Assembly: GCA_019056805.1 (NCBI GenBank)
Contig: DXJG01000009.1
Span: 186,015 to 218,014, forward strand
Reading direction: 5' to 3'
Length of the DNA stretch: 32,000 bases
Origin: Candidatus Baldrarchaeota archaeon
GTDB lineage: Archaea; Asgardarchaeota; Baldrarchaeia; Baldrarchaeales; DXJG01
Position numbers and translations under genes: made by a program. The first letter of the stretch is position 1. Each line of letters opens with the position of its first letter. Positions 11,965-24,897 of the stretch are shown here, piece after piece. Under the pieces are notes generated by a model, which saw only the letters and a list, made by a program, of their open reading frames with translations, was not told the origin of the DNA and did not search any database.

Positions 11965-12085
11965 TCCCTAGCAAATATTTTACATTTTTATCGTAAATAG
12001 AGAAATATTAAAGTTCAATACAATACAAAGTTGCAAATAAACTCAAGTTTCTATCTTTTATCTAGAAAGAAATATAAAAATATTT

Positions 12086-12330
12086 TTGACACTCTTCCCA
12101 TCGAAATAAAGAGATTTTTGCTTCTAAGGACTTCATTAACATCCTTGACTCATCAGCTTTTACCTCAACCATGTTTCTGTTCTTAGAAGCAAAAGGGTGT
12201 GTTAACACCCCATTATTCCTACCCCATGAAGGGGCTCGGGATTATAGTGAATTTTTAGCAAAGTTTAAACAACCCGCTTCAATACCCTCACTTCTTCCCA
12301 TGATAAATCAGAAGCGTTCATAGCGATATT
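12086..12330 (-). mobile_element. Probable degraded IS200/IS605 (tnpB 3' end/right end) remnant
   Basis: The minus strand reads ...AGCLNFAKN*...GRNNGVLTHP...KSLEAKISLFRWEECQ and ends GATGGGAAGAGTGTCAA, resembling archaeal tnpB tails and TCAA right ends. Hairpin GGGTGT-GTTA-ACACCC at 12195-12210. No intact ORF. Confidence 0.45.
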
Positions 12331-12461
12331 CTTGTAAAGGTGTTCTGAGATACTTTTTCACATAACGTCTTGAGTTCGACTTTGAATAAAGATTCCGAAA
12401 CTTTTTAAACATGTTAGTTTACAATGTTCCCATAAGATCACGTAATTAATAGGTGATAATA

Positions 12462-12749: not shown

Positions 12750-12817
12750 ATAAATATTTCGTATCTTCCTTGTTTTTATCGAAATATATCGTAATTTTCA
12801 TATTCCTTGTTTTTAGT

Positions 12818-13444
12818 CTATATTTTGAGTGAAATAAGTAACAGAGACGAAACTACTGCATAAAGAACGAGATATAATGGGAACATGTAATGATTGAGCA
12901 AAAGATAGTCAGCGAATGCCCAAATAAGTAAACATGAAGCGAAAAGTGATATTCTTCTACTCCTAGTTTTTATAGCTGAAATAACCAATAAGGAGAGCAT
13001 AAGAATACCGCCCATTACAACATAAGTCTTCATTATTAATGAAAACCAGAGAGGTGCCTGTTGGGTATCCAAAATCTCAGCTTCAATTATATGAACACCT
13101 GTAAGGGGTATCGAAATCAATATGACTGCAATAGAAAATATTATGTAAAATTTTATCACTTTTCTCAATTTTTCTGAGTGGATGAACTGTGTTAAAAATA
13201 GCCAGCCAATTGCACCCGTGAAAAGACCAAGTGAAAACCAAACAAATGCAAAAATCCCACTATTTATAAGCTCTAGGAACCATAGACTCATATCTACTAA
13301 TCCTAAACATCCAAAGAGATAGTAAAGACTAAAATATAAAGTTGTGTTTTCTATTTTTCTATACTTTAAGCCCGATTTAATCAATACATAGGTTGAAAAC
13401 GTTGTTAGAGAAATACTCAACATAGCGAGGAAATATTCATACAC
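12818..13444 (-). CDS. Integral membrane protein with about 7 predicted TM helices
   Basis: Seven hydrophobic segments separated by short basic loops in 208 aa, with no soluble domain. Confidence 0.7.
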   Translation of the reverse strand: MYEYFLAMLSISLTTFSTYVLIKSGLKYRKIENTTLYFSLYYLFGCLGLVDMSLWFLELINSGIFAFVWFSLGLFTGAIGWLFLTQFIHSEKLRKVIKFYIIFSIAVILISIPLTGVHIIEAEILDTQQAPLWFSLIMKTYVVMGGILMLSLLVISAIKTRSRRISLFASCLLIWAFADYLLLNHYMFPLYLVLYAVVSSLLLISLKI

Positions 13445-13508
13445 TTTAATACCCCCTTGATTAAGTGAAAAATTAGCTATAAAAAGTACGAGAAAAAACT
13501 AAGAAAAC

Positions 13509-14066
13509 TTATTTGTAGAAAATCTTTTTTAACAGTAGCTTGAAAGCTTCGAGAACATTTTGTCCATTGAGTGCTGAAGTTCTCAGAAAACAGATGTCAC
13601 CATTAACATTGATATATTTTTTCATTTCTTCAATAGAAATAATATTATCTAAATCGCACTTATTTATGCAAAAAACTATCGGTATATCGTTTTTCAGCAT
13701 ATTTTTAAGTTCTTTCCAACTTTTTAGATTTTCTTCCAATAAACCACGTTGTCCATCCGCAACAAAAATTATTCCATCAACTCCTCTTAGAACCGTAGGC
13801 CGTGTCTCAACATAGTAATTTTGCCCAGTAGCAGTCCATACATTCACCTCTATATTCCACTTTGATGCTTTAAATATTAAATTACCAAAATCAAAGAAAA
13901 GTGTTCGTCCCGTCGAGGTCTCCAATGAACTTATTTTATTTTGCAAATTGAATATTTTAAAGAGAGTTTTTACTGTAGTAGTTTTTCCACTCATTGCAGG
14001 ACCATAATAAACAATTTTTGTCTTTATTTTCTTATTCACATAGTCTACTATCAAAACGATCACCAT
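13509..14066 (-). CDS. MglA-like small GTPase (Ras superfamily)
   Basis: KIVYYGPAMSGKTT (G1), GRTLFFDFG (MglA switch I with Arg), TATGQ (G3), NKCD (G4) and TSAL (G5). Confidence 0.9.
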   Translation of the reverse strand: MVIVLIVDYVNKKIKTKIVYYGPAMSGKTTTVKTLFKIFNLQNKISSLETSTGRTLFFDFGNLIFKASKWNIEVNVWTATGQNYYVETRPTVLRGVDGIIFVADGQRGLLEENLKSWKELKNMLKNDIPIVFCINKCDLDNIISIEEMKKYINVNGDICFLRTSALNGQNVLEAFKLLLKKIFYK

Positions 14067-14941
14067 AAACCATTTATCCAGTCTTCTATTTGGAAAAACC
14101 TCCCTTTTTGCAATATATTTTCAAAATCTTCATTCCATTCTGCTTTAATAAACAAAATTATATCTTCAGGGGGCGTTTGAGAATAACCTATGGTTTCAAG
14201 CAACGTTTTACCTGATATTTTACCAGAAATTTGAAATTGTTCAAGAAGACGAATCCTAGAGAGAAGATATAAAGCTCTCCTACAAGCATGAACAAATTTT
14301 AGTATTTCCTCTCTTAATATTTCTTCCCTTAAGACCTCTTCTTCTGCATCAAAATCTAGCAAAACTTTCAATATATGTTCGTTTAACTGCTTCTTACCAA
14401 TTTTTTTCTTCAAAACTTTTTTAATCCGCTCCATCGCTACACTAGTTCTCTCTAATATTTTCTCAGAAATCATTTTTCCGAAAAACATATCTATATTCCC
14501 GTACTTCTGAAACTTAAAAGGATTTGAAAGATGTAAAACTCCACAGTAATTATTTTTATTAAGAATTTTTTCCACCACATCTTTTAAGCTAAGCAAAGCC
14601 GATTTTATCCCTATTATACATCCCTTAAAATCATCAAATTCAGAAAGAGCTCTCTTAGCATACTGACTATAAACTAATGTGGCTACCCTTTTCATGTCAT
14701 AGTCTTGTTCCTCTGAAAAAAGCAGTTGAAGACGTTCTTCTCTTGTAACAAAATCTGTCCAATAAACAACAGTTTCCCTATGAGGAAATAAAGATGCTAG
14801 AAAATCAACATACATATTTACAATATTTGAATCATCTCCAAATACTATTACAGGGACACGTAAAAATAAGCAATTAAGAAGTTGAGAAAATTCATCCTTA
14901 TCTAAATTTTTTAACAACCGACTTAACAGCTTTCTCGTCAT
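14060..14941 (-). CDS. Hypothetical protein, possibly cDENN-like alpha/beta domain plus helical C-terminus
   Basis: 293-aa ORF overlapping the GTPase start by 7 nt. LLNCLFLRVPVIVFG...VDFLASLFPH resembles the cDENN core pattern by eye only. The CDS itself is likely real; the product call is weak. Confidence 0.5.
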   Translation of the reverse strand: MTRKLLSRLLKNLDKDEFSQLLNCLFLRVPVIVFGDDSNIVNMYVDFLASLFPHRETVVYWTDFVTREERLQLLFSEEQDYDMKRVATLVYSQYAKRALSEFDDFKGCIIGIKSALLSLKDVVEKILNKNNYCGVLHLSNPFKFQKYGNIDMFFGKMISEKILERTSVAMERIKKVLKKKIGKKQLNEHILKVLLDFDAEEEVLREEILREEILKFVHACRRALYLLSRIRLLEQFQISGKISGKTLLETIGYSQTPPEDIILFIKAEWNEDFENILQKGRFFQIEDWINGLW

Positions 14942-14956
14942 AAAGAGACACCATAC

Positions 14957-15895
14957 CTAAAATGACAACTGAAAATCTTCAAGTGCACTTACTTTGGGAA
15001 TGACGGGTTTTTTCATCTTACTTTCTCTTAATATGTTTCTAATCTTATTTATACAAGAATTTATAATAAGACGAAGGAAACCAAGTTTAATATGTCCCTT
15101 AACAGTCTTTATAACTAATACACAACCTCCTAAATCATAAATGAAATACATATAATTTCTACAATCACACATAAGTCGTCTTACCACGGTTTTCTTTGTA
15201 ATCCACATAAGTCTTGTAGCAGTATCCATTAGAGAATAAGCTAAAACGTCTCCACTACTTGTCTCGCTACATTCACTATTTCTTGACAGAGATAAAACTA
15301 AATATCCTCCTTCATAAATTAAAGAAACTGTCTCTATCTCCCGAATTAAAGTTAACAGCTCCTCCAAACTTCTTCTAATACTTTCAAAAGTCTCACCATT
15401 TAATTCTAACATTTCATGTTTAATCCCGTCAAATTCTTCTCCCCCAGGTTTTACAAGAAAGGACCTCAAAATATTCTTTAGTTCTTCCTCAGTAAACTTT
15501 CTAAGTGGCGGTTTTATATCAGATAAATTCAAAAGTGCATTACGAAGAAGGAAAAAGTTTTCACGCATTTTCAGGAAAATTGCACCAAGATTAACTCTTG
15601 GCCTAGTTACAATTGTAAAACAAAATTCTCTAAGATCCTGTAAAGGAGATATCACCATATTAACTCTGTTTCCCTCGATAAACAAGTAGTTTAGAAGCCC
15701 CCTACTTAACTGTTGAGCTGCGGCGTAAATTGCAGAGCTTGATGAACAAACACCAAATATTTCATTTTCACTAAGCCAAACACCAACAATACTTATTGGA
15801 AACCCATCTTTCTGAGATAAAATAGCTGTTTCCACGCCATAAATTTCCCTAAACTTCTCTAGGTAACATTTAATATCGTTTAACACTTTTCGCAT
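14957..15895 (-). CDS. Tandem roadblock/LC7 (MglB-like) domain protein
   Basis: Two roadblock-like units: GVETAILSQKDGFPI...AIYAAAQQL...LFIEG...VNLGAI and IETVSLIYEGGYLV...LMDTATRL...IKLGFLRLII. Confidence 0.72.
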   Translation of the reverse strand: MRKVLNDIKCYLEKFREIYGVETAILSQKDGFPISIVGVWLSENEIFGVCSSSSAIYAAAQQLSRGLLNYLFIEGNRVNMVISPLQDLREFCFTIVTRPRVNLGAIFLKMRENFFLLRNALLNLSDIKPPLRKFTEEELKNILRSFLVKPGGEEFDGIKHEMLELNGETFESIRRSLEELLTLIREIETVSLIYEGGYLVLSLSRNSECSETSSGDVLAYSLMDTATRLMWITKKTVVRRLMCDCRNYMYFIYDLGGCVLVIKTVKGHIKLGFLRLIINSCINKIRNILRESKMKKPVIPKVSALEDFQLSF

Positions 15896-19531: not shown

Positions 19532-19635
19532 GGGCCCGTGGCCTAGCTGGATATGGCGCCGGCCTGCGGATAAAATTTTAAAATGACTTAGTAGAAAGCC
19601 GGAGATCCCGGGTTCAAATCCCGGCGGGCCCGCCA
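19532..19635 (+). tRNA. tRNA-Arg(GCG) with a 27-nt intron at position 37/38 (19570-19596) and encoded CCA
   Basis: Acceptor GGGCCCG/CGGGCCC, anticodon stem CCGGC/GCCGG, loop CT-GCG-G, T arm CCGGG TTCAAAT CCCGG. BHB central helix CTGC/GTAG with bulges GGA and AAA. Confidence 0.95.
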
Positions 19636-24312: not shown

Positions 24313-24897
24313 ATGCAAAACTTGATGAATGAGCCCACAGATGAAAAATTAAAACAAATATCGAAAATGTTAGATGAATTAGAAAGAAAAACAACCTTGG
24401 AGGCAATAGCTCTCGTTTCCAAAAGCGGTTTACGTGTAGCTTGTGCAACAAGTACAGTGGTAGATGCCGACTTATTTTCAGCTTCGGCAGCAGCCTTGAT
24501 AAATATCGGAGAGAAAACAACACGAGAATTAGGACATGGAAACCTAAATGATGTAATATTAAGAGGTGAAAATGGTTTTACGATAGTTACAGAGGTAAAT
24601 CCACAAATGATGCTCGTTGCTAGCTGTAAAGAAACACATAAACTAGGGTACTATATGGCGTTACTCAAAAACTATACAAGACGTATAGCTCAAGCTCTTG
24701 AACTTCCCTCTATTGAAGAAAAGATCCCACAAGTCCTGGAAAAACCTTATGTTGAAGAACATCCTACTCCGCCAGCACCACCAAAACCATTAGAAACAAA
24801 GACTCCAGAACCAGAGGTTTTAGAAACAGAACCTGAAGAGAGAGATGAAGAAGAGGAAGCACTACTAGAGGCTCTAAGAGCACTAGAAGAGGAATAA
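24313..24897 (+). CDS. Roadblock/LC7 domain protein with Pro/Glu-rich C-terminal tail
   Basis: LEAIALVSKSGLRVA, FSASAAALINIGEKTTRELGHGNLNDVILRGENGF and KLGYYM; tail PTPPAPPKP...ERDEEEEALL. Confidence 0.85.
   Translation: MQNLMNEPTDEKLKQISKMLDELERKTTLEAIALVSKSGLRVACATSTVVDADLFSASAAALINIGEKTTRELGHGNLNDVILRGENGFTIVTEVNPQMMLVASCKETHKLGYYMALLKNYTRRIAQALELPSIEEKIPQVLEKPYVEEHPTPPAPPKPLETKTPEPEVLETEPEERDEEEEALLEALRALEEE

Follow-up and report, generated by a model that had tools for sequence, protein, structure and literature searches.

The window analysed here, by which we mean the whole stretch of 32,000 nucleotides from a Candidatus Baldrarchaeota archaeon (contig DXJG01000009.1, positions 186,015 to 218,014), carries on its minus strand a compact group of four co-oriented genes. 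The first encodes a tandem roadblock protein (15895-14957; an open reading frame (ORF) of 312 amino acids), the second a DENN protein (14941-14060; 293 amino acids), the third an MglA-type GTPase (14066-13509; 185 amino acids) and the fourth a seven-transmembrane (7TM) protein (13444-12818; 208 amino acids, starting at GTG). The roadblock and DENN genes are separated by 15 nt, the DENN and GTPase genes overlap by 7 nt, and 64 nt lie between the GTPase and 7TM genes. An ORF check reproduced exactly this arrangement, which had been described in an original prediction made from the sequence alone, and the four protein labels given there (tandem roadblock, DENN-like, MglA GTPase and 7TM) each held in profile or structure searches. 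The prediction had also treated the four genes as one self-contained operon. This stands for the first three, hereafter the trio, which are conserved together, and is weakened for the 7TM gene, which lies outside the conserved module because it occurs only in the host order and because the trio lacks it in at least seven other families.

Based on a family profile built from 45 orthologues, the product of the first gene contains two roadblock domains. RB1 (residues ~4-116) matches the solved roadblock 7f8m at E 5e-7 and RB2 (residues ~168-288) matches 9jue at E 4e-9, while the MglB chains 6hjm and 6h5b are reached by the same profile at E ~8e-4. HHalign matches the two halves to one another (E 2.4e-5, 110 columns, 15% identity), and they are joined by a linker with a conserved PPL..F motif; a short C-terminal helix follows RB2. 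Because both halves have profile matches, align mutually and share this conserved linker, the protein is, as far as its sequence can tell, a fused, asymmetric roadblock pseudo-dimer, and it becomes a candidate single-chain platform of the MglB type with GTPase-activating protein (GAP) function. Its nearest Atlas clusters are Asgard Robl_LC7 proteins of 330-336 amino acids.

The product of the third gene is, by its motifs and profile matches, a Group-1-like MglA. A PDB profile search with the GTPase family returned Thermus and Myxococcus MglA at E 6.6e-43 to 2e-42, followed by Rab11B as the second-ranked family at E 9e-14, a difference on which a Rab-like identity was rejected. A Rag identity was likewise rejected, as this is a single MglA of 185 amino acids without a fused roadblock. 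The G1 (GPAMSGKT) and G4 (NKxD) motifs are canonical, G2 contains R54-T55 and G3 reads ATGQ82; 42 orthologues show no variation at residues G22-T29, R54, T55, Q82, N135, K136 and D138. R54-T55 is aligned with the RTLFFD motif of the T. thermophilus and M. xanthus MglA proteins. An Arg adjoining the G2 Thr is the hallmark of Group 1 MglA, in which it is the MglB dimer that brings the intrinsic Arg and Gln into place (PMC4316618).

The second protein is a single-copy gene product in the host genome, and its identity emerged from structure. Its AF2 model (pLDDT 91, pTM 0.86) returned DENN proteins at all of the top six positions of the VIA structural matches (Z 13.0-9.9): DENND10 (Z 13.0, rmsd 4.0, 182 residues aligned), folliculin's C-terminal domain (FLCN-CT; two chains; Z 12.8, rmsd 3.4, 185 aligned), chains of the SMCR8/C9orf72 complex (Z 10.8 and 9.9) and DENND1A (Z 10.3). 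All six were aligned at their C-terminal DENN lobes, and P-loop NTPase folds rank next in the list, in agreement with the DENN literature. The cDENN part, residues 1-150 of the model, is an alpha/beta domain of P-loop-like topology without Walker motifs, and helices 153-269, which align with FLCN 344-558 and DENND10 157-357, form the dDENN part. No uDENN/longin domain was found in the chain, which belongs to a family about 300 amino acids long, since residue 1 of the model already aligns at the start of the cDENN lobe (FLCN 344, DENND1A 167). Sequence searches of Pfam, NCBIfam and the PDB with this protein gave no significant family, and Folliculin_C was matched weakly in three of 77 family members (best E 5e-4). 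The last 13 residues are poorly predicted, conserved and amphipathic (mean hydrophobic moment of the tail 0.41), ending in W(G) with a nearly invariant W293, and this tail may bind a membrane or a partner protein.

The distribution of these genes was surveyed in 201 genomes of the phylum, sampled from 27 families, the genomes being incomplete and related genomes not independent of one another. The close homologues carry Candidatus Baldrarchaeia or Baldrarchaeota labels, with one labelled Odinarchaeota, in line with an Asgard host of that group. The DENN gene occurs in 107 genomes and nine families, nearly always as a single copy. With the protein query it was found in 106 of the 116 other genomes of these nine families and not in the 84 genomes of the other 18 families, where a profile added only marginal partial matches. 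The best MglA matches in the 18 DENN-less families reach only E 1e-32 to 1e-46 and belong by score with the second MglA of the host genome, whereas trio loci score ~1e-75 or better; the trio-type GTPase was therefore not found in those families either. The roadblock-DENN-GTPase order and its tight spacing are intact in 64 of the 65 distinct genomes inspected, across all nine families, so the arrangement is not a matter of chance. The flanks vary by family (HD protein/CTP synthase, FtsZ/fumarase and others). In the window they are co-oriented HDAC-family and NIF3 genes on the 5' side and a convergent ribosomal S26e gene on the 3' side, and a functional tie to any of these three was rejected because of the variation. 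Synteny across Asgard genomes, which the original prediction had proposed as a check, is thus strong for the first three genes, the fourth being limited to the host order (5/201 genomes).

Within the trio, the roadblock and GTPase genes appear to form the tighter unit. Second copies of the double-roadblock and MglA genes without a DENN gene are present at five loci (L122, L123, L131, L138 and L140) of one family, which also has the full trio, and in two genomes (G137 and G182) the DENN gene has moved away from the roadblock-GTPase pair; together these cases suggest that the pair is held together more closely than the whole trio. Solo paralogues of the trio-type MglA, without a roadblock neighbour, occur at nine loci (L125, L127, L128, L129, L132, L133, L134, L135 and L139). 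In a midpoint-rooted GTPase tree, several forks of which are unsupported, most of the paralogues cluster with trio GTPases from their own lineage, which fits duplications at the level of lineages. At L133 a gene for a six-transmembrane protein of 200 amino acids lies directly upstream of the solo MglA gene; no similarity between this protein and the 7TM protein of the window was detected.

The host genome encodes a second MglA as well (L120:3921-6288; G000:C9:99920-102287), which is 34% identical to that of the window and keeps the R-T pair and the GQ. It sits among separate roadblock-type genes of 94, 154 and 123 amino acids and a divergent roadblock-like ORF of 128 amino acids. This class of MglA is present in nearly all Asgard genomes searched.

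The folds, motifs, gene order and distribution given above are what the analysis showed, and from them we infer the interactions and activities that follow. Our preferred reading, which we regard as reasonably probable, is that the trio is an MglA switch with a double-roadblock GAP platform and an accessory DENN protein, to whose core the 7TM protein does not belong. We favour it because the order of the trio has been kept across nine families while the flanking genes differ, because the DENN gene and the trio-type MglA are absent together from 18 families, and because the MglA identity with its catalytic residues and the two roadblock domains agree with the Group 1 mechanism (PMC4316618). The first three genes would then constitute an ancient, self-contained Asgard switch, in which the GTPase relies on an arginine finger of its own (R54) and on the catalytic Q82 to cycle between GTP and GDP. 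The double roadblock would fold as a single-chain pseudo-dimer, bind the GTP-loaded form in the manner of an MglB dimer and position R54 and Q82, thereby stimulating hydrolysis and setting the location of the GTPase. Of the components of this model, we consider it likely that the double roadblock serves the neighbouring MglA as a GAP and as a platform for localisation. The longin-less DENN protein might dock on the roadblock-GTPase pair and act there as a scaffold, as an effector or as an aid to exchange, and its amphipathic tail may tether it to the membrane or a partner; it is treated as accessory to a roadblock-GTPase core because DENN-less roadblock and MglA copies exist. The roadblock-then-DENN gene order could also be seen as mirroring the longin-cDENN-dDENN domain order, a "split DENN module", and this idea fits the proposal that longins derived from MglB-like roadblocks (PMC3521125).

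A close functional precedent is the MglA-MglB pair of M. xanthus and T. thermophilus, which likewise has an intrinsic Arg adjoining the G2 Thr, a G3 motif that lacks the Asp and keeps the Gln, and an adjacent roadblock gene (PMC4316618, PMC13408092). Its 2:1 roadblock to GTPase stoichiometry could be met here by one double-roadblock chain. The Asgard locus differs in that two diverged roadblocks are fused instead of forming a homodimer and that a DENN gene lies between the roadblock and GTPase genes.

Several observations weigh against the MglA switch reading. The G3 motif is [ST]ATGQ and not the TVPGQ of Group 1, so that the Asp of DxxGQ is missing and the GQ is kept, with V-P replaced. The DENN likeness is structural only, at 7-13% identity, and a Foldseek search of the PDB with the model gave nothing at E <= 1e-3 (best 3e-3). 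All three domains of the DENN module contact the GTPase in DENND1B-Rab35 (PMC3521125), and a longin-less core may for this reason not be a guanine nucleotide exchange factor (GEF) on its own. In M. xanthus, MglB remains bound after hydrolysis and a proposed GEF of MglA proved to be an effector (PMC13408092). Finally, the gap between the GTPase and 7TM genes is 5 nt in the sister family, which would make the 7TM gene a true operon member there. A complex prediction for the roadblock protein, the GTPase, DENN residues 1-280 (the C-terminal tail being cut) and Mg scored 0.14 against a mark of 0.32, and counts as evidence neither way.

The trio matches an operon that Liu et al. had predicted (bioRxiv 10.1101/2020.10.19.343400, Fig. 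5b; Nature 2021), the match being made by the features described there and not by asCOG accessions. [quoted passage not shown] The likeness extends to all three components (a roadblock-superfamily gene, a DENN gene and a small non-Rag GTPase), their tight operon and their wide conservation among the Asgard archaea. The GTPase here, however, is an MglA and not a Rab, the roadblock protein has two full domains, the DENN protein is without a longin, and the genes were found in nine of 27 sampled families instead of everywhere; the host order moreover adds the 7TM gene, which the paper does not mention. The core of the trio is thus already published, and only the 7TM addition seems to be unreported: in a literature library that was incomplete, no paper was found that describes this addition or that puts the trio to an experimental test.

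One alternative, the proposal of Liu et al., is that the MglA has a genuine GEF in the DENN protein and that the trio is a minimal module of GAP, GEF and GTPase, directly ancestral to the eukaryotic longin-DENN GEFs. The model matches the Rab-interacting cDENN:dDENN lobe, the DENN gene co-occurs at the family level with the trio-type MglA paralogue, and the family conserves surface-type Arg and Glu residues (R28, R55, E77, R85, E155, R175, E200, R222 and E268). In addition, the cDENN:dDENN of folliculin-CT alone shows in vitro GEF activity on Rab35 (PMC3438538). On the other hand, the longin domain is missing, the DENN gene has been dropped from the duplicated roadblock and MglA pairs, and the catalytic (GAP) site of the FLCN, SMCR8 and C9orf72 complexes lies in longin domains (PMC12290439). 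The folliculin-CT data thus stand against the three-domain contact and the longin catalytic site. Judging from the fold, a strict GEF role for the DENN protein is doubtful, and we hold the GAP/GEF/GTPase module built on it to be the less probable course of events.

Comparison with the eukaryotic systems leads to a similar distinction. The cDENN+dDENN fold is shared with FLCN-FNIP, C9orf72-SMCR8, DENND1 and DENND10, and a platform built as a roadblock/longin pseudo-dimer next to a small GTPase is shared with Ragulator-Rag and the longin-DENN complexes. In contrast to the latter, there is a single DENN chain with no longin fused to it, and hence no longin arginine finger; and the GTPase is an MglA, neither a Rab nor a Rag heterodimer with C-terminal roadblocks. 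Since there is no Rag and, with one longin-less DENN gene, no longin-DENN heterodimer, the locus is not a member of the Rag/folliculin system. The resemblance to a Ragulator/folliculin-type circuit in the original prediction therefore survives as an analogy, one already present in Liu et al., and lapses as regards the GTPase, which is MglA and not Rag, and the DENN protein, which is without a longin.

The 7TM protein is an order-specific addition with a receptor-like fold. Its AF2 model, built from only 11 sequences, has seven long helices (pLDDT 87). Loops 1, 3 and 5 carry four Lys/Arg each and loops 2, 4 and 6 carry none, and this positive-inside pattern predicts an N-out/C-in topology, with no cytoplasmic tail. 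Pfam, NCBIfam and PDB sequence searches found no significant family, and no Pfam match above cut-off. The best VIA match is the transmembrane domain of the adhesion G-protein-coupled receptor (GPCR) ADGRL3 (Z 11.6, rmsd 4.5, 194 aligned), which falls below the Z of ~13 advised for helical bundles; the structural neighbours in general are GPCR transmembrane domains and microbial rhodopsins, and generic helical bundles can score as high. Foldseek matches have E 0.09 or worse and are shared between GPCRs and rhodopsins. A rhodopsin identity was rejected, since no mid-helix Lys that could serve as the Schiff-base lysine was found in the seventh helix, where the first Lys to appear is the C-terminal K207. 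An Atlas shape search gave TM scores below 0.5 throughout, and an Atlas feature search gave unnamed archaeal and candidate phyla radiation (CPR) clusters at low recognition, with HisKA_7TM a lead only (0.88, 10% of members); the HisKA_7TM profile had no match in the host genome. No longer or fused homologue was found, in what was a weak test.

Homologues of the 7TM protein are confined to the host order, where the five carriers belong to two families with ~40% identity between them; none was found in the other 196 genomes searched, 102 of which carry the DENN gene. In all five carriers the gene lies directly 3' of the GTPase gene, and the same position is seen in further Baldrarchaeia contigs. 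At one locus of another family (L035), S26e adjoins the GTPase gene directly, without a 7TM gene between them, which is consistent with insertion of the 7TM gene in the ancestor of the order. The 64-nt spacer of the host genome (13445-13508, minus strand), read directly from the sequence, contains four oligo-T tracts on the coding strand (T4, T6, T5 and T5) and, directly 5' of the GTG start, the Shine-Dalgarno-like motif AAGGGGGT. As the T-tracts resemble archaeal oligo-U terminators, co-transcription of the 7TM gene in the host genome is uncertain. In the preferred reading the gene is a later, order-specific neighbour that the core switch does not need, and it may still be co-expressed.

A second alternative would make this protein the centre of the system: the 7TM protein would sense an outside ligand and, directly or through the DENN protein, make the MglA exchange its nucleotide, the GAP being the double roadblock; such a locus would be the archaeal counterpart of a GPCR or a conservon. 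The constant position behind the GTPase gene in two such diverged families and in further contigs, with one gap of 5 nt, speaks for it, as does the GPCR/rhodopsin-like helix arrangement with its N-out/C-in topology; the invariant polar intramembrane residues (D51, K139, T76 and W55/W69/W81/W175) could make a ligand site together with an AEI motif, likewise invariant, that lies in the longest of the outer loops. However, the adjacency is not above background synteny, as between the two families of the order adjacency is also retained by 27 of the 48 gene pairs that are tightly co-oriented, and by 46 of 115 when every pair of neighbours is counted. The restriction to five genomes when so many others carry the DENN gene, the T-tracts before the 7TM gene, the short inner loops and missing cytoplasmic tail, and a best Z within the generic helical-bundle range tell against it too, and none of the nine other small-GTPase loci examined in the host genome (0/9) has a similar 7TM gene directly downstream. 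A receptor circuit of this kind is therefore improbable, and so is the more specific claim that a GPCR-topology 7TM protein was recruited in Baldrarchaeia as the membrane receptor of the roadblock-DENN-MglA switch.

Two systems are invoked in that analogy. GPCRs share the predicted N-out/C-in 7TM bundle; no sequence-level link to GPCR families was found, and the operon has no heterotrimeric G protein. In the actinobacterial conservon (CvnA-D), too, a single operon encodes an MglA-family GTPase along with a membrane protein, a roadblock and a third partner. Unlike the conservon, the four genes here have no histidine kinase domain and encode a Group-1-like MglA (with the Arg and NKxD) instead of a Group 2 protein (no G2 Arg, NxFD), and on these motifs the locus is not a conservon.

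That the genes are co-located but biochemically unrelated, or that the double roadblock serves another partner such as the second MglA or another GTPase, draws on the second MglA of the host genome, which has roadblock genes separate from these, and on the nine other small GTPases encoded there, and is very improbable when order, overlapping start and stop codons and joint presence have been kept over nine families though all flanks changed, and when the roadblock and GTPase genes duplicate together.

The trio is one of few Asgard operons that join a GTPase with its likely regulators, a combination described as uncommon by Tran et al. (PMC10933270). It offers a test bed for how MglA/MglB logic might have given rise to the eukaryotic longin-DENN regulators, an origin that has been proposed previously (PMC3521125). 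The refinements made here (an MglA and not a Rab, a double roadblock in a single chain, a longin-less DENN protein and a separable DENN gene) are modest; they sharpen the experiments to be done and leave the category of the system unchanged. The 7TM addition would be highly important if it were true that it signals to the GTPase, for which the present evidence is weak; the result would be an archaeal receptor-coupled small-GTPase circuit with a split longin/DENN-like regulator. The Baldrarchaeia host is probably of thermophile type and could yield stable proteins.

Some further observations concern the surroundings of the trio in other families. In family f9 (L051, L053, L054, L056, L057, L059-L061, L063-L065 and L130) many contigs break off ~0.6-2 kb upstream of the roadblock gene, so that a repeat, or an element that is hard to assemble, may lie at this place; ARAGORN found no tRNA at the break position in the intact loci checked. 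In many f9 genomes a convergent Arf-like GTPase gene lies just downstream of the trio (L030, L051-L057, L059, L060, L063 and L064), one gene further away in L051, L052 and L060. In family f12 (L040-L047), an FtsZ gene is divergent just upstream of the trio and fumarase genes are downstream.

Elsewhere in the window, the gap at 12750-12817, between the convergent S26e and 7TM genes, bears a repeated AAAAACAAGGAA...ATACGA/ATTACGA unit and may be a bidirectional terminator region. The 490 nt between the divergent PadR and S26e genes (11965-12452) contain no ORF of 60 amino acids and have no Rfam match. A tRNA at 19532-19632 (plus strand) was identified by Rfam and missed by ARAGORN; being 101 nt long, it probably contains an intron. 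A further roadblock/LC7 gene at 24313-24897 (plus strand), encoding 194 amino acids with a C-terminal extension, is tightly trailed by genes for an AAA_18 kinase-like protein and an endonuclease dU.

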